Below are positions 2,326 through 24,719 of a stretch of DNA of 64,000 nt, piece by piece. Position 1 is the stretch's first letter, and each line of letters opens with the position of its first letter. The DNA is from Candidatus Parcubacteria bacterium (lineage in GTDB: Bacteria > Patescibacteriota > Minisyncoccia > UBA6257 > 2-01-FULL-56-20), in NCBI GenBank assembly GCA_027355945.1, contig DAIEHA010000002.1, forward strand, positions 15,071 to 79,070. The letters are read 5' to 3'. The notes beneath the pieces were generated by a model, which saw only the letters and a program-made list of their open reading frames with translations, searched no databases and was not told the DNA's origin. Made by a program: the position numbers and the translations under genes.

Positions 2326-2350
2326 CCTTCGAAGGCCGCGAAGTTATCCA

Positions 2351-2971: not shown

Positions 2972-3568
2972 ATGGCCAATTTCTCGCGAAAGATCAAGTT
3001 AGTCCTTATATTTGTTGCAATAATCGTAGCGGGTTATGCGCTTGCGTTCTACTGGCAGACGAGGAATAGGGTCCCTCTTGCGTTCGTGAATGCCCGCAAT
3101 CAGGGGGCGATCATCGCCCAGAGCATCGTAAGCACCTCGAACAGCTCCACTGCCACGCTCGAAAAAATAGATCAGTATGACAGGGAGGGGAACTATGCCC
3201 AGGCCCTTGCTCTCACCCAGGGGCTCGTGAGTCAGAGCGTGGATCTTCGCAATCAGGCCATCAACCTTTCCAATCAGATCGAAACGATGACCCAGTCCCT
3301 TTCCGGCATAAAGGACTTCACTGCCCAACAGGATGCCCTCGAAGCGATATCGAGCCATCTTGCGCTCATCAATCAGCTCATCAATTACAGCGGCGATCTT
3401 GGGAAGCTTCTTGATACCCTCCAGATGCGTTTCAGCGGGCAGACGGGGACTTTGGGCGAAGTGACGGGCCAGGTTGCCCAGATAAACATCGACATCAACG
3501 CCATCAACAATTTCAACAATCAGGCTCAGCAATCCATGCAGGCATTTGATAAAATAGAGAACAAGTGA
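2972..3568 (+). CDS. Hypothetical signal-anchored coiled-coil protein
   Basis: ORF 2936..3568. The internal start at MANFSRKIKLVLIFVAIIVAGYALAF gives a charged N-terminus plus TM anchor. The rest is Q/N/L-rich predicted coiled coil. No recognisable family. Confidence 0.45.
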   Translation: MANFSRKIKLVLIFVAIIVAGYALAFYWQTRNRVPLAFVNARNQGAIIAQSIVSTSNSSTATLEKIDQYDREGNYAQALALTQGLVSQSVDLRNQAINLSNQIETMTQSLSGIKDFTAQQDALEAISSHLALINQLINYSGDLGKLLDTLQMRFSGQTGTLGEVTGQVAQINIDINAINNFNNQAQQSMQAFDKIENK

Positions 3569-3588
3569 GACCCTGTCCGGAGTATGAT

Positions 3589-3660
3589 GGGCACATAGCT
3601 CAACGGTAGAGCAGACGTCTTATACACGTCCGGTTCTAGGTTCGAATCCTAGTGTGCCCA
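3589..3660 (+). tRNA. tRNA-Ile with anticodon UAU (reads AUA)
   Basis: Manual cloverleaf: acceptor GGGCACA/TGTGCCC, D stem GCTC/GAGC, anticodon stem GACGT/ACGTC, loop CTTATAC (U33, anticodon TAT, A37), T arm CTAGG-TTCGAAT-CCTAG, discriminator A. CCA not encoded. Confidence 0.75.
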
Positions 3661-3664
3661 CAAA

Positions 3665-3690
3665 AATCCCCGCATGTGCGGGGATTCTTT
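3665..3690. terminator. Bidirectional rho-independent terminator between the tRNA (+) and ftsH (-)
   Basis: Perfect hairpin AATCCCCGCA-TGT-GCGGGGATT, flanked by an A-run upstream and TCTTTT downstream. Confidence 0.6.
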
Positions 3691-5519
3691 TATGCAGTGA
3701 TCGGCTTTATTTTGAACGGTCTTAGGACGGCGTTGAAATCATCCTGTTCGAGCACCTCCTTTTCCATGAGCGTGTCCGCGACCTTCTTGAGGGCCGCTTT
3801 ATGGGACTTGAGCACTTTTTCGGCGACATCGTAGGCGTGCATGAGGAACTTCTTCACTTCCTCATCGATCTCCGATGCCACCTTCTCCGAATAGTTCTTT
3901 TCCGAGGAGATCTCCCTTCCAAGGAACATCATCTCCTCCGTTTTTCCGAACGTCATGGGGCCCAGTTCGCTCATGCCGTATTTCGTCACAAGCTTCCTTG
4001 CAAGGTCGGATGCCTCTTTTAGATCGTTCGACGCCCCAGTGGAGATATCCCCGAACGTAAGCTTTTCCGAGGCATAGCCTCCCATCATCATGGCAAGATC
4101 CGCGAGGAATTGCGCCCTTGTTTTGAGGTGCACATCCTCATTGGGGAGTTTCATGGTATATCCTCCCGCAAAACCGCGGCTTATGATGGAGACCTTTTGC
4201 ACGGGATCGGCATCCTTCAGAGATGCAGCCACGAGCGCGTGCCCGCCTTCGTGATATGCGGTTATCTCTTTCTCGTGCTGGGAAATGACACGACTCCGGC
4301 GCTCCGGCCCCATAATCACCTTCTCCGCTGCTTCAAGAAGGTCCGCCTGACCGATCATCTTCTGTCCGTGCCTCGCGGCGGCGATGGCCGCCTCGTTCAT
4401 GAGATTCGCGAGATCCGCTCCCGAAAAGCCCGGTGTGCGTTGCGCCACCCTCCGAAAGTCCACGTCCTTCCCGATGGTCTTCCCTTCGGCATGGATCCTG
4501 AGGATCGCTTCCCGATCCTTCATGTCGGGAAGATCGAGGATGATGCGACGATCGAAACGGCCCGGGCGGAGAAGCGCCGGATCGAGGACGTCCGGACGAT
4601 TCGTCGCCGCGAGGACGATGACCCGCGTATCCCTATCAAAGCCGTCCATTTCCACGAGGATCTGGTTCAGCGTCTGTTCGCGCTCATCGTTGCCTCCGCC
4701 CATGCCTGCGCCGCGCTGGCGTCCCACCGCGTCGATCTCATCGATGAAGAGGATCGCAGGAGCCGCCCGTTTCGCGGTAAGGAATGCATCTCTTGTGCGC
4801 GAGGCGCCTACCCCCACGAACATCTCCACGAACTCGGATGCGGAGATGAAGAAGAAAGGAACATTGCTTTCGCCTGCAATCGCCCTTGCGACGAGGGTTT
4901 TTCCGGTTCCCGGGGGTCCCATGAGCAGGATCCCGCGGGGGATCCTTGCCCCAAGATCGAGGAATTTCTTGGGGGTTTTAAGGAAATCAACGACCTCGAT
5001 GAGCTCCTCTTTTGCCTCCTTGAGCCCGGCCACGTCCTTGAACATGACACGATCCTTGAATGAGGAGACTTTGAGGTTGGAACGGCCGAAATTGAAGGCC
5101 TGGTTCACCCCTGATCGCGCCTGTCGGAACATAAGCCAGAAAAGGACGCCGACCAGAAGCAGTTCGAGAAGGGGAGGAAGGAGTAGGCTTGCCCAATATT
5201 GCGCCCCGCTCTGATTGACCACCTGGAGGTCCATATTTTGAAGCGCCTGATCGTTCACGCCGAGATTCTTGAGGGTGCTCGTGATGTCGGCGCCATCCTC
5301 CTTCTGCGATACCGCAGCACTGCCGTCGGTCATCGTAATATCAAGCTCGGACCCATTCACCTTTATCTGTTTTACCTGTCCTGCGTTGATGTCGCTTGCG
5401 AGCTGGCTCAGGCTGAGCGTCTTTGCCGAGGGAGCGGGAGTGAAAAAGAACGAGAATATGAGCGATATCACGATGAGCGTGATGACGGCCCATATGATGT
5501 TTTTTGAGAGGTTTGACAT
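3690..5519 (-). CDS. ftsH: ATP-dependent zinc metalloprotease FtsH
   Basis: Walker [21 protein letters not shown] region, and HEGGHAL zinc-binding motif. N-terminal [19 protein letters not shown]. The ORF extends to 5543, but the MSN start at 5519 matches FtsH N-termini better. Confidence 0.93.
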
Positions 5520-10702: not shown

Positions 10703-11575
10703 TTAAGAAGTTTCGCGAGCTGTTTCCGCGATTCGTTCTGCGGCAAGTACTTCGCGCGCGGTGAAGATGAACGCGGGCACTGCGACGAGTAGCATGAAAA
10801 AGGTGATAAGCACGTATCCTGCATCCACTGGAAGATTGCGATCGAGGCCGAGAAGCGTGATGATGCCAAACACGCCGAAGAGGATCCCTCCGAAGAACAG
10901 CGTGCGTCCGCCGGTCTTCGCACCGATCTGCTGGATGGCGCGCTCGCTCAGGCGGAACCATCGGAGTGATGCGCCAAAGAGGTATCCTATGACGACGAGT
11001 GCGATCATGGTCCCGATCCCGAAAACGAGCCCCGGCAGAAATCCAAGCCATGGGCTTCGCATCGCCGGCGCAGCGATGGTGTTCACGAAAAGCGAGAATC
11101 CGCCGAGACCGAACCCGGCGATGAAACCGTGGATCATCGTCCAGCGGATGGGGGGCACGCCCTTATCGCCGGATGGCGTTTCGTGATGGTGCGCTGAGAG
11201 CAATCCGCTGACCGATCTTCCCATCTCCGCTTCGCTCTTATGATGATGGCCGAGAAGATGCAAATGGATGTACCGATTCTTGCCGATGACGAAGAAGCCC
11301 GCAGCGGACATCGCGATGCCCACCACGAGATATACGATACCGTTAATATCCGGGTTGAGGAGGAACGGGGCGAGCGCAAGATAGGCGATCTCCGAGAGGA
11401 GCATCCGTTGTACCGTGAATGCGGCGGAAAAGAAAAGACCCGCCTTCATTCCCTCGCGTCCGCTTGCCCCCCCGACCGCATAGCTGAACGTGATCGGCCA
11501 TGTGTGCTCGTCCGGCAGCACGCCATGGAGGATGCCGAAGAAGAAGGAATAGATTACCGCAGTGAGGGGGGTCAT
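10703..11575 (-). CDS. Putative NicO/RcnA-like metal (Ni/Co) transporter with His-rich loop
   Basis: 290 aa polytopic protein with the loop HLHLLGHHHKSEAEMGRSVSGLLSAHHHE between TM bundles. N-terminal GILHGVLPDEH segment. Family assignment is inferred. Confidence 0.5.
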   Translation of the reverse strand: MTPLTAVIYSFFFGILHGVLPDEHTWPITFSYAVGGASGREGMKAGLFFSAAFTVQRMLLSEIAYLALAPFLLNPDINGIVYLVVGIAMSAAGFFVIGKNRYIHLHLLGHHHKSEAEMGRSVSGLLSAHHHETPSGDKGVPPIRWTMIHGFIAGFGLGGFSLFVNTIAAPAMRSPWLGFLPGLVFGIGTMIALVVIGYLFGASLRWFRLSERAIQQIGAKTGGRTLFFGGILFGVFGIITLLGLDRNLPVDAGYVLITFFMLLVAVPAFIFTAREVLAAERIAETARETS

Positions 11576-11802
11576 ATCGTATGTGTATCGGTGCGAAGGA
11601 AGGTGATGCGATTCTCTCGCCGACCTACGCGGGACATATGCTTATGGTAGTCTCGCAGAGTGCAAAGTCAAATAATCGTACTCATAAGGATACAAGGAAG
11701 GAACTTCGCCTTGATCGGCGCGCAACCTTTTAATCGCAATGCGCTCTGCGGATGATATCGCACGGCTCTTTTCCTTTGAAAACGATCACGATCTTTTATA
11801 TG

Positions 11803-11836
11803 AAAAAACGGCGATCGCGTTGTGAGCAAATCGCCG
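11803..11836 (-). terminator. Rho-independent terminator for the PDZ-protein gene
   Basis: Stem CGGCGA...TCGCCG with a T-run on the minus strand, immediately 3' of the stop at 11867. Confidence 0.4.
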
Positions 11837-11866
11837 CCGATGATGACGCATCTTCGAAAGATCCCG

Positions 11867-12262
11867 TTAGTCGACGGGGATCTCCAGGAAGTGCAGGCGC
11901 CTTCTCCGGAAGGAATATGCAATGGATCTGCCGCTCCTGTCGATGGTGATATTGGTCAGCGTGCCTTCCCGACCGCTTATCAGGTTTCTGAGCCGAGCAG
12001 CTTTCTGCTCCGAGGGCGCAATGATGGCGACCCCGTCCACTTCAAGGATCCTGTCCCCAGCTTCGATGATGCCCGCAGCCGGAGTGTTGGGCTGGACCTT
12101 GGTTACGAAGAGGCCGTATCCATGGTCAACCGGACGAATATCGATGAAGACACCGATGCCCATCTGATCGAGCAGGCCGACTTTCGCAGCAACGAGGATC
12201 AAGGGTATTGCGATGTACGCAAGTACGCATGCGCCAATGATATACGGAACTGCGCTGTTCAT
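11867..12262 (-). CDS. PDZ-domain membrane protein
   Basis: ORF 11867..12370. The internal start MNSAVPYII follows AAAGGGG. TM helix, then a PDZ-like GLFVTKVQPNTPAAGIIEAGDRILEVDGVAI segment. Confidence 0.6.
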   Translation of the reverse strand: MNSAVPYIIGACVLAYIAIPLILVAAKVGLLDQMGIGVFIDIRPVDHGYGLFVTKVQPNTPAAGIIEAGDRILEVDGVAIIAPSEQKAARLRNLISGREGTLTNITIDRSGRSIAYSFRRRRLHFLEIPVD

Positions 12263-12559
12263 GAGATCCCCTTTCTTTGGGTTGCGATTTTTCCGAGGCT
12301 TCGGGAAGCATAGCAATGTTTTTCTTGTTTGAAAAGCCGTCAATGTCGGCAAAATAGGCGTTCGTATCATATCCGCACCTTTATCCGCAGATGGCGATCC
12401 GCGCCCTCCTTCTCGGCGAACGAAGCGTCGGGCGCAACCATATCCTCGGCAGCACCGCTCGTCGCGACCGGACCGCTCGCGCCATAAGTACGGTCCATGA
12501 ATGGGAGGTTTTTACTCGCAGAGAATGCGGAAGATATAAAGGGATTGAGAGTGCGGTAT

Positions 12560-12583
12560 GCTCAAAACCCAACAAGGGGTGCC
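12560..12583. repeat. Direct repeat copy of the tRNA-His 3' end plus trailer (left copy)
   Basis: gctcaaaacccaacaaggggtgcc matches 24629..24653 gctcaaaatccaacaggggggtgcc (2 mismatches, 1 indel), same orientation. Confidence 0.6.
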
Positions 12584-12616
12584 CGGGTGGAGGAAGTCAG
12601 GACCTGTTTCAGAGAG
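12577..12616. repeat. Conserved intergenic motif, copy A (GGGTGCC-N3-GTGGAGGAAG-YCRGGAC-YTGTY)
   Basis: Aligns with copies at 13201..13240 and 14316..14354. All lie between consecutive minus-strand genes. Confidence 0.55.
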
Positions 12617-12617
12617 T

Positions 12618-13073
12618 TTAGCGCAATTGTTCCCAATATCCTTTTTCCCTAACCTTCGCTTCTATTTTCGCTTTCAGTACTGTGATATCCATAGAATCCG
12701 GAGACGGAGATGCCTCCTGTTCTGCGAGAGATGCCCGAAGAGAATCAATTTCTTTTTCAAGCGCTTCAAATTTATTACGCCGGGATGCGTCGCGATCCTC
12801 CCTCTCTTTACGAGACGCCAACCATTGATTGACTTCGAGATCCGTTTCAAGTGCTTTTTCGTGCGCGACATCAACTGGGGAGATTTTTCTCTCGAAGAGC
12901 TTTCCGGAGAGTGCTCTATCGAGAAATCCGCTGCCGTTCTTGAGATCGGCACGGAATTTGAATTCCTCATCGGATTCTTTGCGTGAACGCTGCATGCGGG
13001 CTTGCCAGGACTCCTCGCTTTCGTTGGTATGTTTCCAACTTTCCGATCCGCCCATAGGAAAATTTTGGGACAT
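12618..13073 (-). CDS. Hypothetical charged coiled-coil protein
   Basis: 151 aa, E/K/R-rich, no TM. Codon pattern consistent with coding. Confidence 0.45.
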   Translation of the reverse strand: MSQNFPMGGSESWKHTNESEESWQARMQRSRKESDEEFKFRADLKNGSGFLDRALSGKLFERKISPVDVAHEKALETDLEVNQWLASRKEREDRDASRRNKFEALEKEIDSLRASLAEQEASPSPDSMDITVLKAKIEAKVREKGYWEQLR

Positions 13074-13273: not shown

Positions 13274-14194
13274 CTATGGGGTGATGCTAAACGGAGAGCT
13301 GAATGCGTTTGTAGCGCCATAGCCAACCACCACTTCATAGTTATTACCAGGGGGAACATTGGACGGCACTGTCCAGAGATAATTTCCTACATAGCTCCCC
13401 GTCGATGCCGGAGCATCGCTCACTATTCCGTATTGGTCGCCACTCGACGCATTTATGAGATTGATCGAAACAGTGGTCAGGCCGGAGGAGTTCCATGAGA
13501 TTCTTTCCTTTTCCCCCACCCTCCATAGCGACCCCTGGATCGGCGAGACTATCTGGATCGAGGCCTTTGATTGTGACGCATTCTTTGTGGAACCGGAGGG
13601 CGTTGTTACCGCAGGGAGGGTTGTCGAAGAAGAGGTGGCAATACTCGGTAGGATACCTCCCGAACTCGTTGTGTTTGTGGAAGATGTCGCGAGGGGATTC
13701 GCATATTCTTGAGCGATTTTTTGCTCTTGTTGCTGTGCGTATTGATTTTGTTGTCCAGTTACATAGAAACTTATCGCAAAATAAAGGGCGCACAGAACGA
13801 ATGTCGCTATGATTTTGAAGGCAACACTACTGCCGAGACGATCGGAAAAATCATCATGATTTTTCTCCGGTGGCAACGGATCGTCGCCGTATTGATTTGG
13901 GCCCGCTGTCCCAGACCGAAGGAGAAGGCCCAGAAGGAGATAGACATTGAAGACAGGGACGAGCATGGCGAGCACATACAAGCCTGATTTCCCGAGGTCG
14001 TGGAAGCGTCGGAAGGTTATAAAGATCGTAAAAATAAAAACGACGATATAAAAAAGGGATGCAACAAGCCCCGCTACAATAAAATTGGGAATAAGAACGG
14101 AAGAAATCAAATAAATACCGCCTGTAGCAACAACGGCCAATGCGACGCTCCAAATAAGGAAACGCAAACGGCCGATTCGACCTCCAATTTCCAT
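13274..14194 (-). CDS. DUF805-like membrane protein with Ser/Thr-rich linker and C-terminal extracytoplasmic beta-sandwich-like domain
   Basis: 306 aa. N-terminal RRFHDLGKSGLYVLAMLVP resembles the DUF805 (YhaH-like) family. Several TM helices, an S/T tract, and a C-terminal IQIVSPIQGSLWRVGE...YEVVVGYG domain. Confidence 0.55.
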   Translation of the reverse strand: MEIGGRIGRLRFLIWSVALAVVATGGIYLISSVLIPNFIVAGLVASLFYIVVFIFTIFITFRRFHDLGKSGLYVLAMLVPVFNVYLLLGLLLRSGTAGPNQYGDDPLPPEKNHDDFSDRLGSSVAFKIIATFVLCALYFAISFYVTGQQNQYAQQQEQKIAQEYANPLATSSTNTTSSGGILPSIATSSSTTLPAVTTPSGSTKNASQSKASIQIVSPIQGSLWRVGEKERISWNSSGLTTVSINLINASSGDQYGIVSDAPASTGSYVGNYLWTVPSNVPPGNNYEVVVGYGATNAFSSPFSITP

Positions 14195-14315
14195 GTTTTT
14201 ATTATAGCAAACGCCCTCGCCGAAAATTTTGCCCTACGCCGCATTTTTACTTATCGGTCCAAACTTGCATCAGGGTCCTCCCTGTAAGTCCCCTACAACC
14301 CATCGAATTTTGGGT

Positions 14316-14354
14316 GGGTGCCTTGATGAAGGAGGTCAGAACCTGTTCGGTGAG
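14316..14354. repeat. Conserved intergenic motif, copy C
   Basis: GGGTGCCTTGATGAAGGAGGTCAGAACCTGTTCGGTGAG. Confidence 0.5.
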
Positions 14355-14377
14355 ATAAATCCCTCTTTTGGAGAAAA

Positions 14378-14406
14378 TAAAATACCCGCCAAGCGGGTAT
14401 TTTATT
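14378..14406. terminator. Bidirectional rho-independent terminator
   Basis: AAAATACCCGC-CAA-GCGGGTATTTT perfect hairpin flanked by A and T runs, directly 3' of the stop of the minus gene at 14412. Confidence 0.55.
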
Positions 14407-14411
14407 GCTTA

Positions 14412-14753
14412 TTACTTTGTGCTCGTTGCTTGCGGGGCATTTTGATAATATCCTCGCATCATGCCGCCGGGCCCGTAATAATAGGTCGGGGCTCCCGCAG
14501 ACTGGGTGGGAGCCGCGTTTTGGCTCTGATAGTAATATCCACCCATCATCGGCATATAGCCGTAGGGATAAGGAGAGCCGCCATAATAGCCATTTTCCAT
14601 CATGCCGGGCCACATGCCATATCCGTAATAGCCAAGGGTAGTTTTGAACTCACCCACTTTGACGCCCATACAGAAGACCACGATCAAGATAAGAATGCCG
14701 AGGACCCAGCGAAGCAATTTATGATGACCGTCTTCGTGCGTATGTTCTTCCAT
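14412..14753 (-). CDS. Small Met/Tyr/Gly-rich membrane-anchored protein with His-rich N-terminus (possible metal-binding)
   Basis: ORF to 14873. The internal start MEEHTHEDGHHKLL precedes one TM, then a GYYGYGMWPGMMENGYYGG...MPMMGGYYY tail. Divergent from csoR. Confidence 0.5.
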   Translation of the reverse strand: MEEHTHEDGHHKLLRWVLGILILIVVFCMGVKVGEFKTTLGYYGYGMWPGMMENGYYGGSPYPYGYMPMMGGYYYQSQNAAPTQSAGAPTYYYGPGGMMRGYYQNAPQATSTK

Positions 14754-14810
14754 AGTAATTAATTTTTTGTTGGCGACCTTTATCCTAAGACGACAGTACA
14801 TTATGTATAA

Positions 14811-14825
14811 TACCCCTATAGGGTA
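14811..14825. promoter_or_regulatory. CsoR-type operator box 1 (TACCC-N5-GGGTA)
   Basis: Inverted repeat TACCCCTATAGGGTA overlapping a TATAAT hexamer (14806..14811). Resembles the B. subtilis CsoR box. Confidence 0.55.
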
Positions 14826-14843
14826 TACTGTCAAATACTCAAT

Positions 14844-14873
14844 TTGACACGCGATACCCAGTGGGGGTATCAT
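14844..14873 (+). promoter_or_regulatory. csoR promoter: TTGACA-N18-TATCAT with operator box 2 (14855..14869) in the spacer
   Basis: TTGACA at 14844..14849, TACCCAGTGGGGGTA inverted repeat, TATCAT at 14868..14873. Identical architecture to 21275..21304. Confidence 0.6.
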
Positions 14874-14879
14874 AAGGAT

Positions 14880-15149
14880 ATGGATAAGGTAATAAAGAAA
14901 AAAGCCTTACGAAGGCTTCAGATCGTAAAGGGGCAGATCAAAGGCCTCGAAAAAATGATCGACGATGAAAAGTATTGCATCGACGTTATTACACAATCAT
15001 CCGCTATCAAGCAGGCTCTTTCTGGCGTTGAAGATCTTTTATTAGAGAACCATCTTGCTACACATGTGGCGATGCAAATGAAGAGCGGAGAAAGTAAGAA
15101 GGCGACCGCAGAGATGGTAAAAGTATATAAGCTATCAAAGCGAATATAA
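14880..15149 (+). CDS. csoR: CsoR/RcnR-family (DUF156) metal-sensing transcriptional repressor
   Basis: RLQIVKGQIKGLEKMIDDEKYCIDVITQSSAIKQALSGVEDLLLENHLATHV matches the CsoR-family core with conserved Cys and His ligands. ORF track start is 14844; 14880 chosen (near-leaderless from the TATCAT -10). Confidence 0.8.
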   Translation: MDKVIKKKALRRLQIVKGQIKGLEKMIDDEKYCIDVITQSSAIKQALSGVEDLLLENHLATHVAMQMKSGESKKATAEMVKVYKLSKRI

Positions 15150-15150
15150 T

Positions 15151-15564
15151 ATGAGATCAGTGCTTGCGATCGTGATTATGGTGGCTGCGATCTTCGCTCT
15201 CGTGGCGGGTAGTTTCGCCATGGTCAATATGGGATCCGGCAGTCATACAAACTGTCTTGCGGCGATTCCCGGGAGTCCAAAATGTCTTGGAAGGATGGAT
15301 CTGTTTCAATTCGCAATAACGCATATTAGTACACTCCTCGGCATATCGCTCGGGATCGTCAGTCCAATAACAGCTTTTCTCTTGGCTGCGTTCGCAGTGC
15401 TCGTATGGATCGCAGTTTCTAATTCGTTCAACTTACTGTTGGGTTCCTTGGGCTATTCAAGGGTTTTTATTGAGGCAGAAATAGGTAGCGCTCGTAAGCA
15501 ACACCACTGGATCTCCCTTCTTGAGAAACGCGATCCGTCTTCGTCTTGCGCTATGAACGTCTAA
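15151..15564 (+). CDS. Hypothetical membrane protein co-transcribed with csoR
   Basis: Starts 1 nt after the csoR stop. 137 aa, three TM helices, a Cys pair (HTNCLAAIPGSPKC), and C-terminal SSSCAMNV. Confidence 0.5.
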   Translation: MRSVLAIVIMVAAIFALVAGSFAMVNMGSGSHTNCLAAIPGSPKCLGRMDLFQFAITHISTLLGISLGIVSPITAFLLAAFAVLVWIAVSNSFNLLLGSLGYSRVFIEAEIGSARKQHHWISLLEKRDPSSSCAMNV

Positions 15565-15599
15565 GCGAATCAATCTCGCCGCGTCGTTTATAGCGCCCC

Positions 15600-15622
15600 A
15601 AACCGCATCCCTGCGGTTTTTT
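15600..15622 (+). terminator. Rho-independent terminator
   Basis: AACCGCA-TCCC-TGCGGTT followed by TTTTT. Confidence 0.55.
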
Positions 15623-15822
15623 CGTTGCACATAAATTCATCGGTCTATTGCCATGCATAAAAGCAAAAAGGTCGTTATCAGTAAAACAGAGCCATTCTTC
15701 ATCATCCTGACACTTGTCGGTGCGTTCGCGTTGTTTACATAGCAAACGTTGCGGATGGCGCAATATCACATGAGTGCGCCCCCTCTCCAGTAAAGCACTA
15801 CCACTATAATCTCCCAATCCAA

Positions 15823-16314
15823 ATGAATAGAAAACCAACGTTAGAAGAGTTCCTTAAAAAAATTGAATCAACAAAAGAAAAGGCGGGCGTTGATCTGTCG
15901 ACGGCTGAAGATCTGAGCATCGCAGTCATGAACCTCATAAGCCTCGAAGAGCATTTTTTCTTCACGGGAATAAAAACGAAAAAAGATGAGTACTTCGACA
16001 CAGTGCAAGAGATCCGGGAGTTGCGTAAACAATTTCTCACGCAATTAATGCCTAAGCACGAAGGGGAAACGTGGTGCATCTCAAAACATCTTCTTTCCGC
16101 CACGATGCGCCTTATTGAAGTGGGCAATAAGTTGCAATCGGAAGGCATAAAAGAAAAAGCGAAGCAAACATTTGAAGGAGCCTATAAGGTCTACTCGATC
16201 TTTTGGGCCCTCAAATTGGATCTCGTTAATGGCAGCGAGATTAAGGAAGCGGCAAGGGGCGGCTCCGACTTAGAAACAATTATCGCTAAGATGGCCGATT
16301 GCTGCAATGAATAG
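15823..16314 (+). CDS. Hypothetical cytoplasmic protein ending in DCCNE
   Basis: 163 aa, helical and charged, no TM. C-terminal vicinal cysteines. Confidence 0.45.
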   Translation: MNRKPTLEEFLKKIESTKEKAGVDLSTAEDLSIAVMNLISLEEHFFFTGIKTKKDEYFDTVQEIRELRKQFLTQLMPKHEGETWCISKHLLSATMRLIEVGNKLQSEGIKEKAKQTFEGAYKVYSIFWALKLDLVNGSEIKEAARGGSDLETIIAKMADCCNE

Positions 16315-16331
16315 TAACAACGATAAATAAA

Positions 16332-17297
16332 ATGGAACACGAAACACATCATCACGAACAAGAAACAGAGTTAATGGAAGAGCTTCTTCCGGAGACGGTG
16401 GTAAAAAGCCATAAAAAAGACTTGTTCTTACCACTCAGTATTCTTGCAGTAGCACTGCTTATCGCTTCAGCATTCGTCTATCTTGGCAATCAGAGAACGG
16501 CATCGGGGCGCAGCACTCCTATACAAAATATCTCAGCCGCTACATTGCAGGAAAAGGTAATTCCGGCAAACGGCGTGATATTGCCGGTTCGCTGGGGCGA
16601 TCTCGGGAGGCAGCTTGTATCGGCGGGTGTCATTAATGAGCCGCAATTCCTCGCGCTCTATGCGCAGCGCGGGGGGTTATCGCCCGACATGAAGGCGCTT
16701 CTTGATAATGCAGATAATGGGAATCTCATTATTACATTGCAAAATTCCGGCACCATATTAAATCTTTTATGGGCGCTTGGCCTTGGGAACAATAATCCAA
16801 TCCTTACGAGCGGGCCCATGGAGAATCCTCAATACGGAGGCGCAAAGAACTTTGCTTCGACTGGCGGTTGGACGCTTTCAGTCGGCAATGCGATGAACCA
16901 TTATAGCGCTCATTCGTTCGTAACGCTTACCGCCGATCAGCAAGCACGTGTGGTGCGTGTCGCACAAAACATCTATCGCCCGTGCTGCGGAAACTCCACG
17001 TTATTCCCGGATTGCAATCATGGCATGGCGATGCTTGGACTCCTTGAGCTCATGGCATCGCAGGGCGTTTCGGAAGCGGACATGTACAAGGCCGCGCTCG
17101 CGGTGAATTCGTATTGGTTCCCTGATACCTATCTCACACTTGCAACCTACTTCCAAAGCCAGGGCGTCGATTGGAGTGCTGTCGACTCAAAGACGGTGCT
17201 TGGTGCTGGATATTCAAGTGCTCAAGGATACCAGCAGATAGTAAATAAAATAACTCCAGTGCAGGCGCAATCGTCGGGCGGCTGCGGGGTGCAATAA
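16332..17297 (+). CDS. Membrane-anchored extracytoplasmic protein with His-rich N-terminus and C-terminal SGGCGVQ tail
   Basis: 321 aa. MEHETHHHEQETE N-terminus, single TM, Cys-rich PCCGNSTLFPDCNHG motif. The C-terminal tail is shared with the next ORF. Confidence 0.55.
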   Translation: MEHETHHHEQETELMEELLPETVVKSHKKDLFLPLSILAVALLIASAFVYLGNQRTASGRSTPIQNISAATLQEKVIPANGVILPVRWGDLGRQLVSAGVINEPQFLALYAQRGGLSPDMKALLDNADNGNLIITLQNSGTILNLLWALGLGNNNPILTSGPMENPQYGGAKNFASTGGWTLSVGNAMNHYSAHSFVTLTADQQARVVRVAQNIYRPCCGNSTLFPDCNHGMAMLGLLELMASQGVSEADMYKAALAVNSYWFPDTYLTLATYFQSQGVDWSAVDSKTVLGAGYSSAQGYQQIVNKITPVQAQSSGGCGVQ

Positions 17298-17313
17298 CCA
17301 AAATTGAAATCTT

Positions 17314-17505
17314 ATGAAATCAACGAATGACAATTTCTGGTTATTCATAAGCATCGGATTGTTTGTAATCATCGTCGGAACTGCGGGAGCTTATGCATTT
17401 CGGTCATTCAGTACGAATGCCGTATCACAAGAGAACGCCACTGTCGTTGCGCCATCACAAACCCAAACACCTTCATCCGGCCAAAGCGGCGGATGTGGGG
17501 TCTAA
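17314..17505 (+). CDS. Small membrane-anchored peptide ending in SGGCGV
   Basis: 63 aa with one TM (FWLFISIGLFVIIVGTAGAYAF). Its C-terminus QSGGCGV parallels the upstream protein's SSGGCGVQ although encoded by different codons. Confidence 0.45.
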   Translation: MKSTNDNFWLFISIGLFVIIVGTAGAYAFRSFSTNAVSQENATVVAPSQTQTPSSGQSGGCGV

Positions 17506-17510
17506 TCGCT

Positions 17511-18374
17511 ATGGAAACAATAATCAGTACATCACTCATTGCGGCATTTATCGCAGGCATCGCGGCCTTGTTCGCGCCATGCTGCGTTACGGTGCTTCTG
17601 CCCGCATACTTCGGTTCGATCTTTCGCACGAGGCGGAAGGTGTTCCTCATGACATTCATTTTCTTCCTCGGCATCTTGACCGTATTCCTTCCGTTAGGAC
17701 TCGGTTTCTCGATGCTTGGACAGGTGTTCAGTCGTTATCATCGCGAGATCTTCACGGTCATTGGTATGGTACTTTTCGCTTTGGGAATCTCACTTCTCTT
17801 AGGAAAGAGGCTCCCTATGCCGAAATCAATGCGCCTCAAACCGGAACTCACTGGAAATGAGAACGCTGGATCAGTGTATCTTCTTGGCATCTTCTCCGGC
17901 ATCGCAACCACTTGTTGTGCGCCGGTACTCGCGGGAGCGCTCGCGCTTTCGGTGTTGCCGGGTTCGTTCATCTGGGGAATTATCTACACACTCGCCTACG
18001 TGCTCGGCATGGTGACCCCACTCTTTGTCCTTGCGGCAGCACTTGACCGGACCAAGATGTCCGAACGTCTCCTTGGCGTGCGGAAGCCGTTGGAATTCAC
18101 GCTATTCGGAAAGGCCATTCGCATGAGGATCTCCGACCTCCTTGCGGGACTGACTTTCTCGATCATGGGAGCACTCACGCTCTACTGGGCATCGATGAAT
18201 CAGGTTGCCGTGCATTCGATGTTGCAAGTGAATATCAACATCTATCTCACGCAGCTGAATAATTTCCTTACCCCCTATATCGGGTGGGTGCCGCAATACG
18301 CGTGGGCGGTCATGTTCGTCGGACTCCTCGTAGCGCTCGTGGTGCTTGCTCTCAAGCAATTCAAAAAGGACTGA
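17511..18374 (+). CDS. CcdA/DsbD-superfamily thiol-disulfide transporter-like membrane protein with vicinal Cys pairs
   Basis: FIAGIAALFAPCCVTVLLPAYF parallels the CcdA TM1 motif (SPC-x3-LLP-x-Y). GIATTCCAPVLAGAL parallels the TM4 motif. Both carry CC instead of a single Cys, as in MerT TM1. ORF track start is 17493. Confidence 0.7.
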   Translation: METIISTSLIAAFIAGIAALFAPCCVTVLLPAYFGSIFRTRRKVFLMTFIFFLGILTVFLPLGLGFSMLGQVFSRYHREIFTVIGMVLFALGISLLLGKRLPMPKSMRLKPELTGNENAGSVYLLGIFSGIATTCCAPVLAGALALSVLPGSFIWGIIYTLAYVLGMVTPLFVLAAALDRTKMSERLLGVRKPLEFTLFGKAIRMRISDLLAGLTFSIMGALTLYWASMNQVAVHSMLQVNINIYLTQLNNFLTPYIGWVPQYAWAVMFVGLLVALVVLALKQFKKD

Positions 18375-18392
18375 TTAAAAAAACATAAAACC

Positions 18393-19013
18393 ATGAAAAA
18401 AAATACATCAAACGGTACTATGGCGGTTAAAGTGATCGGCATTTTTGCTATCTCGATATTTATCCTCGGAGGTATCGCTCTACTCAGTTATGAGAACAGC
18501 GACGCAGCACCTCAGGCGGGCGCCACAGGGTCTGGTAGCTTCGGCAGTGCACTCATCGGCAAGCCCGCGCCGCAATTTTCGCTGAAAGATCGCAACGAAG
18601 TCACATACACCCCAGATAGTTTGAAAGGAAAGAATGTGATTCTTTTCTTTAACGAGGGAATTATGTGCTATCCCGCATGCTGGAATCAGATGGTCGCGCT
18701 CGCGACGGATCCTCGGTTTCAAACATCCGATACGATCGCGCTTTCCATCGTGATCGACTCTCCGGATCAATGGCAGTCGGCGATCCAGAAAATGCCGGAC
18801 CTTGGGAAGGCAACCGTTCTCTTTGACACCGATAAATCCATTTCGCAGGAATACGGGATGCTCACCGCACTATCTTCGATGCATTACGGTTCCTACCCAG
18901 GTCATTCGTTCGTGATCCTCGACAAACAAGGGATCGTCCGCTTCGTCTATGATGACCCAGCTATGGGCATTGATGACGATCGTATCGCGGCCGATCTCCA
19001 AACGTTGAAATAG
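18393..19013 (+). CDS. SCO1/SenC-like copper-binding thioredoxin-fold protein
   Basis: Signal anchor. KNVILFFNEGIMCYPACW gives a CxxxC motif after a beta strand, as in SCO proteins. Downstream HSFVILDKQGIVRFVY matches the conserved SCO His region. Confidence 0.65.
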   Translation: MKKNTSNGTMAVKVIGIFAISIFILGGIALLSYENSDAAPQAGATGSGSFGSALIGKPAPQFSLKDRNEVTYTPDSLKGKNVILFFNEGIMCYPACWNQMVALATDPRFQTSDTIALSIVIDSPDQWQSAIQKMPDLGKATVLFDTDKSISQEYGMLTALSSMHYGSYPGHSFVILDKQGIVRFVYDDPAMGIDDDRIAADLQTLK

Positions 19014-19014
19014 C

Positions 19015-19464
19015 ATGCATAGACCGATCACGAAATCCTTTATCGGAGGGTCTATTGCGACGGGCACGCTCATCGCGGCATATTTCGCAATCGTTTCCCT
19101 CATATCGGGATTTGCATTCGCCGGAAGTCAGTTTGTGGAATTCTGGTTCTACTTCGTGGGATTGGCACTCGGCTTCGGCATTCAGATCGGGCTTTACATC
19201 TATCTGAAGCAACTGGTCCGTGGCGCAAGCGGCGGGCCAGTGGTGGCGGTGACGGGGATGACCTCGACCGCCGCCATGGTTGCGTGCTGCACCCACTATC
19301 TCGTGAACATTCTGCCAATTCTTGGAATAAGCGCCTTCGCCTCATTTGTCGGCGAATATCAGGTTCAGTTCTTTTGGGTTGGTATCGCATTCAATCTTGT
19401 GGGTATCGTCTATATTGCAAGTCGAGTTATAAAAGTCAGGGGGAATATGCAGCACATTGCATGA
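19015..19464 (+). CDS. Hypothetical four-TM membrane protein, possibly the N-terminal half of a split ICMT-like methyltransferase
   Basis: 149 aa, hydrophobic. Ends 4 nt into the next ORF, in a different frame. Contains ACCTHY. Confidence 0.45.
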   Translation: MHRPITKSFIGGSIATGTLIAAYFAIVSLISGFAFAGSQFVEFWFYFVGLALGFGIQIGLYIYLKQLVRGASGGPVVAVTGMTSTAAMVACCTHYLVNILPILGISAFASFVGEYQVQFFWVGIAFNLVGIVYIASRVIKVRGNMQHIA

Positions 19465-19748
19465 ACAAATCAAATCTTGCATGGACTGTCCTCTGTGAAG
19501 CACAGAAAGAACATACGCTTGCAATCGCGGGGCCGTATGCCCGCATTCGTCATCCACAATACATGGCATTCATACTTGTTATGCTTGGGTTCCTGTTTCA
19601 GTGGCCGACCATTCTCACGCTTGCTATGTTTCCGGTACTTCTGTGGATGTATGTGCATCTCGCGCGAACCGAAGAGAGAGAAGCGCAAGCGATCTTTGGC
19701 GTGGAATGGAATGCATATGCGGCGCAAACACCCGCGTTCATTCCCTAA
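19461..19748 (+). CDS. Isoprenylcysteine carboxyl methyltransferase (ICMT/PEMT) family C-terminal catalytic fragment
   Basis: AGPYARIRHPQYMAF (the RHPxY motif) and EEREAQAIFGVEWNAYAAQTPAFIP (C-terminal EE...FG..Y..Y motif). Only ~95 aa from the ATG at 19461. Confidence 0.5.
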   Translation: MNKSNLAWTVLCEAQKEHTLAIAGPYARIRHPQYMAFILVMLGFLFQWPTILTLAMFPVLLWMYVHLARTEEREAQAIFGVEWNAYAAQTPAFIP

Positions 19749-19790
19749 TGGAAACGAAACAATAAATCATTGAAATAAAAATCAACACCT

Positions 19791-19966
19791 ATGTTCAGAA
19801 TCTTTAAGAAAAAGTGTCCGATTTGCAGGATGGCACTCGAAGAAGGAAAACAATATCCTGAGGAATTCGGTAAACAATTCTGTTCGGAAAGATGCAAGAC
19901 ACAGTATCAAGAATTAACAAATAAAAAGAAGCAATCGCAACATTCCAGCCATGGTGGGTGTTGTTA
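19791..19966 (+). CDS. YHS/TRASH-domain small metal-binding protein ending in GGCC
   Basis: Hand translation: MFRIFKKKCPICRMALEEGKQYPEEFGKQFCSERCKTQYQELTNKKKQSQHSSHGGCC. C-x2-C...C-x3-C matches the TRASH/YHS pattern. Shorter than 60 aa, so absent from the ORF track. Confidence 0.55.
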
Positions 19967-19979
19967 AGAGTTCAACGCT

Positions 19980-21278
19980 ATGCGGTTATCGTTTCTTTTG
20001 ATCGGACTCGGATTTGTCGCGGTTTTGGCCGTCGGGGGTATTTCGAGTTCTCGTGCAGTAGCTGCAACGGTGGTAGCTACGAGTACTGGCGGCAATGCTT
20101 CGCAAGTCCAGATCAATACGGATAACCAACAGATCGCAGACCTCAACCAAAAAATAGCATCCTACCAAGCGCAACTTCGGAAAGTAGGTGCGGATAAGAA
20201 AACGCTCCAAGCGGCTATTCACGCGCTCGATTTGCAACGCAGCAACGCACAAGTGCAGGTTGCCGTTACCCAACTGCAGATCAACGCAACCCAGGCCCAG
20301 ATCAAACAGTTGGGCGGAGAGATATTGGGAGCGAAGCAGACGATAGCAGGGGATCAGGCGGCGCTCGGAGAATATCTTCAAAGTCTTCAAAAAGCCGACG
20401 ATAAGCCGTTGATCGTGCAGATGCTTTCATCGGGCGGTCTTGTTCAAGCATGGGATGATATTAATGCGACAGTAAAGATGCAAACCGCCGTCCAAAATCA
20501 AATGCAGGCGCTTCGTGTCCAGGAAGACAGCCTTGCCAACTCGCAGACAGTTTCAAAACAGAAACAGGAAGCACTCACATCGCAAAAACAGGCATTGGCA
20601 TCACGGCAGCAATCGCTTATCGCGACGGAACAATCTAAAAGTCAGCTGCTCGCCGAAACCAAGTCGCAAGAATCTGCTTATCAAAAATTGCTTGCCGCGG
20701 CGCACGCGGAGCTCAGTAGCTTCTCGACGTTTACAGAGAACGCGGGCGGATCAAAACTGCTTGCCAATCAGACCAGTTGCGACTCGTGGGGCTGCTATTA
20801 TAATCAGCGTGATTCGGCATGGGGCGCTACTCCTCTTGATGGGACAAAATATACGCTTGCACGCGCAGGGTGCCTCATTGCATCCGTGGCGATGGTGCTC
20901 ACGCATTACGGGTATAAGGATGTGACGCCTGCGACCATCAACTCGAACCCCGATAACTTCGCGGGGTATTCACCCGATCTGCTGCTCGCGTCGATCGACG
21001 TTGACGGTGTGACCGTTATGCGAAAGGCCATCAGGGTGAAAGGTGCCACTGCCGCACGAAAAATTTCAGTTATTGATGCGATGCTTGCGACTGGCCATCC
21101 GGCAATCGTCGGCATGAATGCCCTCGGCGGCACGCATTTTGTCGTACTCACGAGCGGGAGCAATGGTGATTACCTCATGCGCGATCCGTATGTAGCGAAT
21201 GGTAACGGTATCAGCTTCACCTCCTATTATTCATTGAAGGAGATATATAGCATTGCGAAGATCGTGATCGGGAGTTGA
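19980..21278 (+). CDS. Secreted coiled-coil protein with C-terminal C39-like (papain-fold) cysteine peptidase domain
   Basis: Signal peptide, ~250 aa Q/A-rich coiled coil, then SCDSWGCYYNQ...AGCLIASVAMVLTHYGY...GGTHFVVL resembling Peptidase_C39_2 with its Cys and His. PcsB-like architecture. Confidence 0.55.
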   Translation: MRLSFLLIGLGFVAVLAVGGISSSRAVAATVVATSTGGNASQVQINTDNQQIADLNQKIASYQAQLRKVGADKKTLQAAIHALDLQRSNAQVQVAVTQLQINATQAQIKQLGGEILGAKQTIAGDQAALGEYLQSLQKADDKPLIVQMLSSGGLVQAWDDINATVKMQTAVQNQMQALRVQEDSLANSQTVSKQKQEALTSQKQALASRQQSLIATEQSKSQLLAETKSQESAYQKLLAAAHAELSSFSTFTENAGGSKLLANQTSCDSWGCYYNQRDSAWGATPLDGTKYTLARAGCLIASVAMVLTHYGYKDVTPATINSNPDNFAGYSPDLLLASIDVDGVTVMRKAIRVKGATAARKISVIDAMLATGHPAIVGMNALGGTHFVVLTSGSNGDYLMRDPYVANGNGISFTSYYSLKEIYSIAKIVIGS

Positions 21279-21304
21279 CAGTAAATACCCCCTAGGGGTA
21301 TCAT
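21275..21304 (+). promoter_or_regulatory. ATPase promoter: TTGACA-N18-TATCAT with CsoR-type box TACCCCCTAGGGGTA (21286..21300) in the spacer
   Basis: Same hexamers, same 18 nt spacer and same box offset as the csoR promoter. ATG lies 13 nt after the -10. Confidence 0.6.
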
Positions 21305-21316
21305 TAAGAAAATAAT

Positions 21317-23689
21317 ATGAGCCACGACCATATGCATCACAACGAAGGGGCTGTTCGGCAACCGAATTGTGCCTGCGGCAAGAAGTGTTCCGGGTGCTCT
21401 GCGGAAAAACTAGCTGTTAATTGTGGTTGTGATATGGAAGCAAAACAGTTTGAATCCGATATGGATCATTCTTGCTGCCACAATACGCATAATAAAAAGA
21501 CGAGCGCTCCGGCCGTCGCAATGAGTGCGGAGGGAGGATCATATTATACCTGCCCAATGCATCCGGACGTGAGATCGAAAGTGCCCGGTAAGTGTCCGGG
21601 GTGCGGCATGGACCTTATCCTTAAAAAGGGCGAAGTTGCTTCGCAAGGTGATCATGCAAATCATGATATGCAGGCCATGAGCCATATGGATCATGAGGCG
21701 GCGATGACGAGCCCGCAATTGGCGAAGCAGATGGAGCGGGATATGCGTCGCCGATTTTGGATTTCATTCATACTCTCGATCCCGATCTTTCTTTATTCGC
21801 CGGTCGGCACAGCAGTGTTCAAGGTCGCGCTTTGGAGCCCCATCCCAATCAATTGGCTATTATTGATCCTCACCACGCCGATCGTATTTTGGACGGGCTC
21901 GATCTTCATCACAGGGACATACTATTCCCTGAAAGCAAAAAAGCTGAACATGGCGGTGCTTATTGCGACAGGGGTGTTGGCCGCCTATCTTTTTAGCGTT
22001 CTTCTCACCGTTATCGGAAGCCCCGATACTTTTTATGAGGCAGCAGCACTTTTGGTTACCTTCGTGCTCTTTGGCCATTGGATGGAGATGAAGTCTCGGC
22101 GTGGCACTTCGGAATCTTTGCGGGCCCTATTTGATCTTGTGCCGCCAAAGGCAACGGTTATCCGCGATGGTAGGGAGATCTCGATCCCAAGCGCCGAGAT
22201 TATGCATGATGACATTGTAGTAGTGCGGCCCGGCGACAAATTACCGGTGGACGGCGTTGTGACCGAAGGCGAGAGCGCGGTTGACGAGTCGCTCGTTACG
22301 GGAGAATCAATCCCAGTCACAAAAATGATCGGCGACAAAGTCACCGGTGGATCGGTCAACCAAACAGGGACCCTTAAGTTCAAGGCGACGCAGGTGGGTG
22401 CGGAAACCGTCCTCGCGCAGATCATTAAGCTCGTTGAGACGGCCCAGAATTCCAAAGCGCCGGGTCAGCGCCTTGCCGATCGCGCTGCTGGCTGGCTCGT
22501 TATCTTGGCCGTTGGTTCGGGTATCGTGACATTTCTTGGCTGGTATTTTTGGGGCCACACAGGATTCATCACTGCGCTGACATTCGCCATTTCAGCAGTG
22601 GTGATCGCGTGTCCGGATGCTTTGGGGCTTGCGACGCCGACCGCCGTGGCGGTGGGTACTGGTATCGGGGCAAAACATAATATCCTCATTAAAGATGCCG
22701 CGACACTAGAGAACACTTCCAAGTTGAATGCGGTTGTGCTCGATAAAACAGGGACGTTGACGGAAGGGAAGCCAAAGGTAACCGATATTGTTCCACTGAA
22801 TGGTTTTAACGAAGAAGATGTCTTGCGGTATGAGGCGAGCATTGAAAACAATTCCAATCATCCGGTTGCAAAGGCTATCGTGGACGAGGCCGCCAAGCGT
22901 GGCGTTTCTCTCGTGGAGTCTTCGCAATTCGAATCTATCCCTGGCTATGGCATAAAGGCGACCATCCTTGGCAAGCGGGTACTCGCGGGGAATGAACGAT
23001 TGATGACAACGAATGGCGTGGATGTGGTGTCGGCGAGGATGACCATCGACAAGCTTGCGAACGAAGGGAAGACGATCAGCCTGCTTTCCATCGATGAGAA
23101 GATCGCAGGGGTTACCGCCGTCGCCGATACCGTGCGCCCAAGCGCGAAACAGGCGATCAAACGACTCCAAGACCTCGGTATCGAAGTGGCGATGATAACG
23201 GGTGATCATAAAGTCGTCGCGGAAGCGGTCGGAAAGGAGCTTGGCATCAATCGTGTTTTTGCAGAAGTGCTCCCTAAAGATAAAGCGAGTTATGTGAAGA
23301 AACTGCAGGACGAAGGAAAATTTGTTGCGATGGTGGGCGATGGTGTGAATGACGCTCCGGCGTTGGCGCAATCGGACATCGGTATCGCGATCGGCGCGGG
23401 TACTGATGTAGCGATCGAGACCGGTAACATAGTGCTTATGAAATCCGATCCGAACGATATTGCCTCGGCAATCATCCTGAGCAAAGCAACGGTTGCTAAA
23501 ATGAAGCAGAATCTTTTCTGGGCGGCAATCTATAACGTGTCCGCGATTCCCGTTGCGGCAGGCGTATTCGCAGGGATCGGTATCACGCTCCGTCCGGAGA
23601 TTTCGGCGCTCCTAATGTCCGCGTCATCTATTATTGTTGCCACCAATGCGGTGCTCTTAAAGAGAGTCGAAAGTAAGCTTAAAAGCTAA
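21317..23689 (+). CDS. copA: Heavy-metal (Cu+-type) P1B ATPase with N-terminal His/Cys-rich metal-binding region
   Basis: DKTGT phosphorylation site, GDGVNDAP hinge, TM7 YN and TM8 MSASS (P1B-1 Cu+ signature). TM6 motif is CPD rather than CPC. N-terminal [10 protein letters not shown]...GKCPGCGM metal-binding domain plus His-rich stretches. Confidence 0.92.
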
Positions 23690-24628: not shown

Positions 24629-24653
24629 GCTCAAAATCCAACAGGGGGGTGCC
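24629..24653. repeat. tRNA-His 3' end plus trailer; right copy of the direct repeat
   Basis: Matches 12560..12583. Confidence 0.6.
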
Positions 24654-24719
24654 TAACGGGAATCGAACCCGTATCATCGGAGCCACAATCCGAGGCTCTA
24701 CCATTAAGCTATAGGCACC
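24648..24719 (-). tRNA. tRNA-His (GUG) with encoded G-1
   Basis: Manual fold: G-1 plus acceptor GTGCCTA/TAGGCAC, D stem GCTT/GAGC, anticodon stem TCGGA/TCCGA, loop TTGTGGC (anticodon GTG), T arm ACGGG-TTCGATT-CCCGT, discriminator C. Confidence 0.85.

Follow-up and report, generated by a model that had tools for sequence, protein, structure and literature searches.

Swinging-arm Cys carriers are best known from sulfur oxidation. In the Mer relay, formed by MerP, MerT and the C-terminal Cys pair of MerA, a thiophilic metal is passed between an outer protein, a Cys pair in a transmembrane (TM) helix and flexible terminal Cys tails, and in the Sco and TlpA proteins that act with CcdA or DsbD, an anchored extracytoplasmic Cys-plus-His metal site is kept reduced by a thioredoxin-fold partner. 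In SoxY, the Cys of the carboxy-terminal GGCGG binds the sulfur substrates and sits on a swinging arm (PMC6067878; PMC5336275). Here, we analyze a 64,000-nucleotide (nt) stretch of a Candidatus Parcubacteria bacterium genome (GCA_027355945.1, contig DAIEHA010000002.1, positions 15,071 to 79,070), hereafter the window, in which two neighboring genes, for a protein of 321 amino acids (aa) and a peptide of 63 aa, end in the same glycine-flanked Cys tail. The results show that the shared tail does not reflect chance and is the hallmark C-terminal element of a large, uncharacterized family of membrane-anchored proteins of Patescibacteria.

The initial annotation of this region had reported two adjacent membrane proteins with a common glycine-flanked Cys tail, and both their positions and their sequences hold (Table 1). 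The 321-aa open reading frame (ORF) terminates in ...VQAQSSGGCGVQ, its last residues being QSSGGCGVQ, and the 63-aa ORF, which starts 16 bases past it, ends in SSGQSGGCGV; the C-terminal peptides of the two tail-bearing proteins are ...ITPVQAQSSGGCGVQ and ...QTPSSGQSGGCGV. The larger protein has the His-rich N-terminus (MEHETHHHE, with His at positions 3, 6, 7 and 8) and the single TM span that had been ascribed to it, but not a Cys-rich ectodomain, as there are only four cysteines in the whole protein (C218, C219, C228 and C318). Along the shared Q-S-G-G-C-G-V, four of the seven codons differ, all of them synonymously (TCG/AGC, GGC/GGA, TGC/TGT and GTG/GTC), and the register is not the same, with the Cys fourth from the end in the 321-aa protein and third from the end in the 63-aa peptide. 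When the window was cut into stop-to-stop segments of 25 codons or more (1358 in all), this type of tail stood at the end of these two adjacent ORFs only. We also searched a context sample of 80 related loci taken from GTDB species genomes, almost all of them Patescibacteria; across the 11,766 ORFs of these loci, a stricter tail pattern matched family members, small-ORF homologues and two chance ORFs only, to which the small peptide of locus L078, with the variant tail GGACSVL, was added.

Homologues of the 321-aa protein fall into more than 7,300 clusters at 90% identity, all called “hypothetical” and none with a Pfam domain, and the named sources are Patescibacteria; an exhaustive profile search yielded 722 family clusters at 50% identity, and almost all of the family is of Patescibacteria origin. 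Pfam and NCBIfam scans of both window proteins gave no match, a Pfam scan of 49 aligned members at E up to 10 returned nothing recurrent, and a family profile search of the PDB sequences, again at E up to 10, found no match. In the literature, searches with the tail strings GGCGV, SGGCGV and GGCGI and the core string CNHGMAM, and for Patescibacteria together with copper, CsoR or CcdA, found nothing relevant. In the 49-sequence alignment, the invariant columns are R216, P217, C218 and C219, then D227, C228, N229, H230 and G231, then M234, plus the tail Cys C318. The CC-C-H pattern is present in 247 of the 248 full-length members, that is, those covering the core and the C-terminal region, and this core (RPCC...DCNHGMAM) occurs together with a Cys in the last six residues in 242 of them. 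Terminal arms of Cys are already known, as are copper-linked thiol-redox systems; the family itself is very common in metal-resistance islands of Patescibacteria and yet has no name, domain model, structure or literature.

The position of the tail Cys is tightly kept. Of 120 close homologues, 101 have exactly two residues after it, as do 116 of 132 diverse representatives; three residues follow it, as in the 321-aa window protein, in 17 and 8, respectively. In 109 of the 132 it is flanked on both sides by Gly, Ser, Ala or Asn. Moreover, 32 of the 120 close homologues carry two or three tail copies in tandem (for example ...QGGCGVDAGQ...QQGGCGV). The initial annotation had argued for selection on the peptide rather than for a DNA duplication, and had made its case depend on the tail being kept in orthologues. 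The tail is indeed retained in nearly every orthologue, as well as in the most divergent family members. In addition, GGCGV followed by a stop is encoded exactly in 21 loci by 18 different 15-mers, and since the variation is confined to third codon positions, selection acts on the peptide and not on the DNA, in agreement with the substitution pattern of the small ORF.

This small ORF has orthologues 12-17 nt past the family gene in three related loci (L001, L002 and L003), and a counterpart that shares the IVGxAWxY membrane segment is found in the distant locus L078. Stand-alone peptides made of a TM span and a tail hence follow the family gene in five genomes, those of the window and four others. 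Pairwise comparisons gave ratios of nonsynonymous to synonymous substitution rates (dN/dS) of 0.09-0.25, at nearly saturated synonymous sites, with conservation of the membrane span and the tail and drift in the linker. In the lineages that have the small peptide, the large protein carries a single tail. An artefact, in which the tail would be due to chance or to a repeat in the local DNA and no gene would exist at the 63-aa ORF, is close to excluded. Such an artefact would fit with the absence of the ORF from the public gene calls for the contig, the lack of an obvious Shine-Dalgarno sequence before it and the identity of three of the seven shared codons. However, other cluster genes likewise have no strong Shine-Dalgarno sequence, the tail is conserved family-wide with free third-position variation and is confined to two ORFs of the window, and a selected ORF lies at the same position in four other genomes. 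Based on this conservation, we conclude that the 63-aa ORF is a real gene, with a predicted product that amounts to a membrane-anchored, stand-alone copy of the tail. It may thus represent an alternative to tandem duplication as a way to obtain a second copy, and is a conserved micro-protein missed by gene callers, the function of which can be guessed from its larger neighbor.

The AlphaFold2 model of the 321-aa protein has a mostly helical ectodomain (mean predicted local distance difference test score, pLDDT, 83), and residues 305-321, which comprise the tail beyond the last helix, are modeled as low-confidence coil. Lys and Arg are commoner before the TM span than after it in 76 of 120 homologues and rarer in 14, and the protein is predicted to have its N-terminus inside and its C-terminal tail outside. 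We tentatively favor, at a little short of an even chance, a mobile thiolate arm for Cu(I) as the role of the tail, with CcdA maintaining it in the reduced state. The Cys, sterically unhindered on a disordered Gln/Pro/Ser-rich linker past the helical ectodomain and usually two residues from the carboxyl end, would form a flexible arm that captures Cu(I) at the cell surface, outside the membrane. The metal would be exchanged with the Cys3-His/Met site in the ectodomain of the same protein, or perhaps with a CC-containing four-TM membrane partner. In build, such an arm resembles the GGCGG arm of SoxY, and it would act in the manner of the terminal Cys pair of MerA. A CcdA conduit and a CxxxC thioredoxin-fold protein would keep all of these thiols reduced. 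The 63-aa ORF would supply an extra, membrane-tethered arm, and other lineages would repeat the arm in tandem on the large protein. The topology, copper as the ligand, the movement of the arm and the direction of transfer are the parts of this scheme that we infer.

Copper is favored because of the genes and residues that accompany the tail. A CsoR-family regulator is present in 38 of the 80 loci and a P1B ATPase in 48, numbers that are lower bounds, as are all partner counts given here, many contigs being short and the loci cut by contig ends. Three further loci (L085, L086 and L087) show the same grouping of family gene, regulator and ATPase. In the window, three perfect ATACCC-N5-GGGTAT palindromes were found, two before the regulator (14810-14826 and 14854-14870) and one before the ATPase (21285-21301); the second and third lie inside identical promoter-like TTGACA-18-TATCAT sites (14844-14873 and 21275-21304). 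These sites likely correspond to two copper-regulated promoters, one before each gene. The ORF list starts the regulator at a TTG (14844), while the public call and the operator position favor the ATG at 14880 (gene 14880-15149). The window thereby resembles the known CsoR/CopA copper clusters, which have a CsoR-family repressor and palindromic operators before the regulated genes, and the family gene is syntenic with both regulator and ATPase. The window ATPase has CPD in TM4 (22610-22618), YN, MSASS and a His/Cys-rich N-terminus, and the ATPases of related loci have CPC in 23 cases, CPH in 13 and CPD in 10, together with YN, MxxS[ST] and an HMBD domain. Copper is further favored by the invariant Cys, His and Met residues of the family, which are of the types that typically bind Cu(I), and by member P0126, in which an N-terminal HMA domain is fused through a TM span to the family ectodomain and which has a CcdA-like gene and an HMA-ATPase as neighbors. 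His/Cys-rich N-termini, predicted to be cytoplasmic, are seen among family members.

The supply of reductant appears to be encoded alongside, given that CcdA is present in 30 of the 80 loci and the CxxxC thioredoxin-fold protein in 20; CcdA-like genes also lie beside two further members that we examined individually. As to membrane partners, a 149-aa four-TM protein with a CC pair occurs in 22 loci, and in member P0134 this domain is fused to the family ectodomain (phmmer E 8e-28). More than 150 aa precede the family match in 25 of 150 representatives, and 13 of these 25 extensions contain CxxCG; those that we inspected (P0155, P0165, P0169, P0180, P0189 and others) are domains of four to five TM spans with CxxCG inside a span and a second Cys pair past the last one. 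Pfam gave no match for these four- or five-TM N-terminal extensions. When the profile of the 149-aa protein was compared with that of the four-TM CxxCG domains of other members, the similarity was suggestive only (P 0.005, probability 7%). Taken as a whole, the domain fusions support a functional link of the family with HMA and Cys-pair membrane domains.

Several observations weigh against this interpretation. The window regulator has a C-H-H fingerprint, like that of RcnR, instead of the canonical Cu(I) fingerprint C-H-C, as read from an alignment with reference sequences entered by hand; of the 39 regulator ORFs near family genes, most share it. Similarly, CPD replaces the CPC of P1B-1 ATPases in the window ATPase, next to copper-type YN and MSASS, which makes the metal uncertain. 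Directly before 15823 there is no CsoR operator, and between the regulator and the family gene lies a terminator-like site (15600-15619), which leaves the family gene a putative member of the regulon in this window. Extracytoplasmic Cu(I) sites are more often made of Met and His than of Cys, and metal binding by the tail and core Cys would rest on context and residue types, with no homologue of known function to draw on. The charges of the 63-aa peptide favor neither orientation. Finally, a weak but recurring resemblance of the ectodomain to CcmH fits a redox role equally well.

This resemblance is the basis of the main rival to the thiolate arm, a pure redox shuttle, which we consider unlikely, if far from negligible. 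The ectodomain would be a diverged CcmH-like thiol-disulfide oxidoreductase and the tail Cys a shuttle or resolving thiol, carrying electrons and not metal. Reducing equivalents supplied by CcdA and the CxxxC protein would thereby reach the CC/C site, or envelope proteins misoxidized under copper stress. The C-terminal GCUG of thioredoxin reductase offers a comparison for such a tail, and copper-tolerance thiol-redox systems such as ScsBCD are known. The synteny of CcdA and a thioredoxin-fold partner with the family gene speaks for the shuttle, as these two form the donor chain used by CcmH. In a Foldseek search of the 321-aa model against the PDB, nothing scored below E 2 (best E 2.0), and the sole structural hint was CcmH 2hl7, with a probability of 0.60, a target-normalized TM-score of 0.60 and a root-mean-square deviation of 2.7 over 64 columns, but an E of 2.1. 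Aligning the family with a 22-sequence CcmH alignment by hhalign placed PCCGNS over CPKCQNNS, DCNH over DSNA and LMASQGxSE over MLxxGKSxx (probability 0.09%, E 0.6). Moreover, a divergent member in locus L083 adjoins a genuine CcmH-like protein (motif RCPCCENNIGECTCP, E 1.4e-10 against the CcmH profile), on which the family profile falls in the same register, with E 0.04.

The family and CcmH (PF03918) may hence share a helical module with an R-C-x-x-C-x-N motif (R-P-C-C in the family), which in CcmH has three helices and the R-C-x-x-C in its first loop, as well as the same kind of upstream electron donors, the CcdA and thioredoxin-fold genes lying directly downstream of the family gene. Against the shuttle, none of these similarities is significant, and PF03918 had no match among the 49 members at E up to 10. 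In contrast to CcmH, the family has a vicinal CC in place of CxxC, complemented by a third Cys and a His; about 130 aa form an additional N-terminal subdomain, the Cys tail is present as well, and there is no cytochrome c context here. The invariant His and Met near the Cys, the HMA fusion and the His/Cys-rich cytoplasmic N-termini indicate metal, and tandem and stand-alone arms are harder to explain by a single catalytic shuttle. The Sco and TlpA systems offer a parallel for a metal site kept reduced through a CcdA-type donor, and CcdA and thioredoxin-fold genes are syntenic with the family gene here; unlike Sco, however, the family ectodomain is helical and has no thioredoxin fold, and Sco has no C-terminal Cys arm. 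To our knowledge, Patescibacteria generally lack the cytochrome oxidases that Sco serves.

A sulfur carrier is less likely still, and we regard it as improbable. The tail would hold sulfane sulfur as a persulfide, the cluster would serve in sulfide or persulfide stress or in copper-sulfide precipitation, and the regulator would be CstR-like; the CsoR family does include persulfide sensors. The tail closely resembles the SoxY carboxy terminus, in that both place a Gly-flanked Cys at the extreme C-terminus on a flexible peptide of an extracytoplasmic protein (GGCG[VIA]-COOH here, on the low-pLDDT coil), and a rhodanese gene adjoins one divergent member (L088). However, we found no relation to SoxY in sequence or fold: the family model is mostly helical and membrane-anchored, whereas SoxY is an immunoglobulin-like beta-sandwich, and there was no SoxY match in Pfam or NCBIfam and no SoxZ or other sox gene in the annotated loci. 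Nor were sqr, pdo or cst genes present in the loci examined with Pfam annotation. The regulators are C-H-H or C-H-C and not C-N-C as in CstR, the consistent partners are P1B ATPases, and the context is copper export and thiol redox instead of sulfur oxidation. The family tail also ends in G-[VIA] and not in G-G, and it is repeated in tandem or placed on a separate 63-aa peptide. If the tail is a thiolate arm for Cu(I), this arm design may be used beyond sulfur oxidation.

The initial annotation had called the tail CaaX-like and, in view of a nearby gene of the isoprenylcysteine carboxyl methyltransferase (ICMT) family, had considered a processing or modification of the C-terminal Cys conceivable. 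Such processing would attach a lipid to the tail Cys, cleave off what follows it and end with methylation of the newly formed C-terminus by the ICMT-family enzyme. The 321-aa protein does end in C-G-V-Q, with its Cys fourth from the end as in a CaaX box, an ICMT-like gene is part of the extended cluster in 10 of the 80 loci, and unrelated S-adenosylmethionine-dependent methyltransferase genes lie near two divergent members. ICMT-like proteins of unknown role, CzcN and NccN, also occur in czc and ncc metal-resistance operons. Nevertheless, this tempting reading of a Cys near the C-terminus can be cleared away as close to excluded. Only two residues follow the Cys (C-x-x-COOH) in 84-88% of members, as they do in the 63-aa peptide (CGV), internal tandem copies cannot be C-terminal signals, and Gly does not qualify as the aliphatic a1 residue. 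Prenyltransferases and ICMT work at the cytoplasmic side of the membrane, whereas the charge bias of the homologues predicts the tail to lie outside, among extracytoplasmic thiol-redox proteins. No prenyltransferase and no CaaX protease of the CPBP/Rce1 family was called by Pfam within 6 kb.

The ICMT-like gene itself is decaying while the tails persist. It encodes about 213 aa in other loci, but tblastn recovered in the window only residues 122-218 (L014 numbering, at 19479-19769), so that the last 95-97 codons are left, and in L001 it is frameshifted (11612-12471); the tails are intact in the window, in L001 and in L002. The deletion in the window took away the first half of the ICMT-like gene and, with it, two genes that L002 keeps (11161-12633) between the four-TM gene and the ICMT-like gene; one encodes a secreted protein of 157 aa, the other a His-rich membrane protein of 106 aa with HSCCH at its end. 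Of the proposals made in the initial annotation, its fallback, a plain terminal metal ligand, comes close to what the context favors.

The thiolate arm could also be one element of a larger device. We consider it rather unlikely, though worth stating, that these clusters encode an undescribed extracytoplasmic Cys-arm relay, made of the helical Cys3-His/Met domain, extra arms (in tandem or on micro-proteins of about 60 aa), the four-TM Cys-pair partner and the CxxxC protein fed by CcdA. If true, the relay would transport Cu(I), or a different thiophilic species, across the membrane or along it as Mer moves mercury, and it would add a new family, and with it a new mode of copper handling, to what is known of minimal-genome organisms. 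In parallel to Mer, some family members have the ectodomain joined to a four-TM domain in which CC or CxxC lies within a TM span, and several cluster proteins end in Cys motifs, those beyond the tail-bearing pair being of the DCCDE type and GGCC(H). Unlike in Mer, the family is accompanied by a CsoR-family regulator and an efflux ATPase; we detected no homology to Mer proteins, and no MerA-like reductase in the loci examined. The Gly-flanked Cys arm would in any case provide a testable handle on copper protection of the envelope in small-genome, mostly uncultured bacteria.

Table 1. Positions in the window of the tail-bearing genes, their motifs and the surrounding cluster genes
Feature	Position (nt)	Strand	Evidence or remark
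321-aa founding member of the unannotated family	16332..17297	+	Short His-rich N-terminus, one TM span, mostly helical ectodomain, disordered linker, Cys tail
TM anchor, aa 31-52	16422..16487	+	Hydrophobic span; model helix 32-56
Invariant core motif YRPCCGNSTLFPDCNHGMAM (C218, C219, C228, H230, M232, M234)	16974..17033	+	49-sequence alignment
Tail QSSGGCGVQ (C318) of the 321-aa protein	17268..17294	+	Invariant Cys column
63-aa small ORF	17314..17505	+	One predicted TM span, aa 8-29 (nt 17335-17400); Gln/Ser/Thr/Pro-rich linker; tail QSGGCGV, nt 17482-17502
163-aa soluble helical protein ending in DCCNE	15823..16314	+	Conserved upstream partner of the family gene
CcdA/DsbD-type membrane protein	17493..18374	+	PF02683, E 1e-10; true start possibly ATG 17511
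Membrane-anchored thioredoxin-fold protein	18393..19013	+	AhpC-TSA and Redoxin Pfam matches
149-aa four-TM protein, CC pair in TM3	19015..19464	+	Fused to the family ectodomain in P0134
ICMT-family methyltransferase remnant, C-terminal 95 aa	19461..19748	+	PF04140, profile positions 14-91
58-aa zinc-ribbon-like protein ending in HGGCC	19791..19967	+	ORF; absent from public gene calls
CsoR-family repressor gene and two operators	14810..15149	+	PF02583, E 3.5e-23; probable start 14880; 89 aa in public annotation
P1B-type ATPase with HMBD domain	21275..23689, including the promoter-like site (ORF 21317-23689)	+	Pfam matches

Two other ends with a Cys pair pointed out in the initial annotation, DCCNE at 16314 and HGGCC at 19966, are present and kept in relatives. 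The first belongs to the 163-aa protein, found directly upstream of the family gene in 23 of the 80 loci. It has more than 5,100 homologues of 70-88% identity and no family name; all of the 120 homologues compared end in CC plus one to three residues (DCCDE-type), an ETWC.SKHLL motif is invariant, and the gene almost always lies directly upstream of a tail-bearing gene. Its AlphaFold2 model (pLDDT 65) gave only generic helical bundles in Foldseek, with no fold match. The second belongs to the 58-aa zinc-ribbon protein, present in 10 loci, in all of which the GGCC(H) end is kept; its relatives usually adjoin the ICMT-like gene and the four-TM CC gene.

The two thiol-redox proteins of the window have motifs of their own. 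The CcdA-like protein carries vicinal Cys pairs in two TM spans (PCC at aa 29-31, with CC at 30-31, and CC at aa 141-142), at positions where canonical CcdA has a single Cys. The thioredoxin-fold partner has invariant MCYPAC (CxxxC) and SMH..PGH motifs, and its CxxxC is Sco-like and not the CxxC of TlpA and ResA.

Three other candidates for a partner or a function of the tail were considered and rejected. A PDZ protein (11867-12370) that might read a C-x-hydrophobic-COOH end is syntenic in none of the 80 loci, a C39-like peptidase (19980-21278) that might cut after Gly-Gly co-occurs in three loci only, and a sortase-type or lipobox sorting signal would require a hydrophobic segment, of which there is none past the tail Cys.

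Further genes around the family also attracted our attention. A small His/Gly/Tyr/Met-rich membrane protein (14412-14873, minus strand) is divergent from the regulator promoter region; it has homologues in L001, where the similarity is close, and in L011, where it is weaker. In L083, beside the divergent member, positions 1987-4184 encode a CcmH-like/DUF1573 fusion, two more DUF1573 proteins, each with S/T-C-G-C-T, a PCYCGC-family protein and cupredoxin/COX2-like genes, a set that looks like further copper-associated Cys-motif proteins. Rfam and tRNA scans found no RNA element within the cluster of the window. This cluster (about 14000-22000) has a G+C content of 45-51%, lower than the 55-61% that prevails elsewhere in the window, and its end is close to a tRNA-His gene (24645-24719). 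The related cluster of L087 is flanked by a transposase gene, and the same metagenome assembly also carries a copy of the window cluster (L082). The low G+C content, the tRNA-His edge and the transposase in L087 suggest that the cluster is a mobile island.

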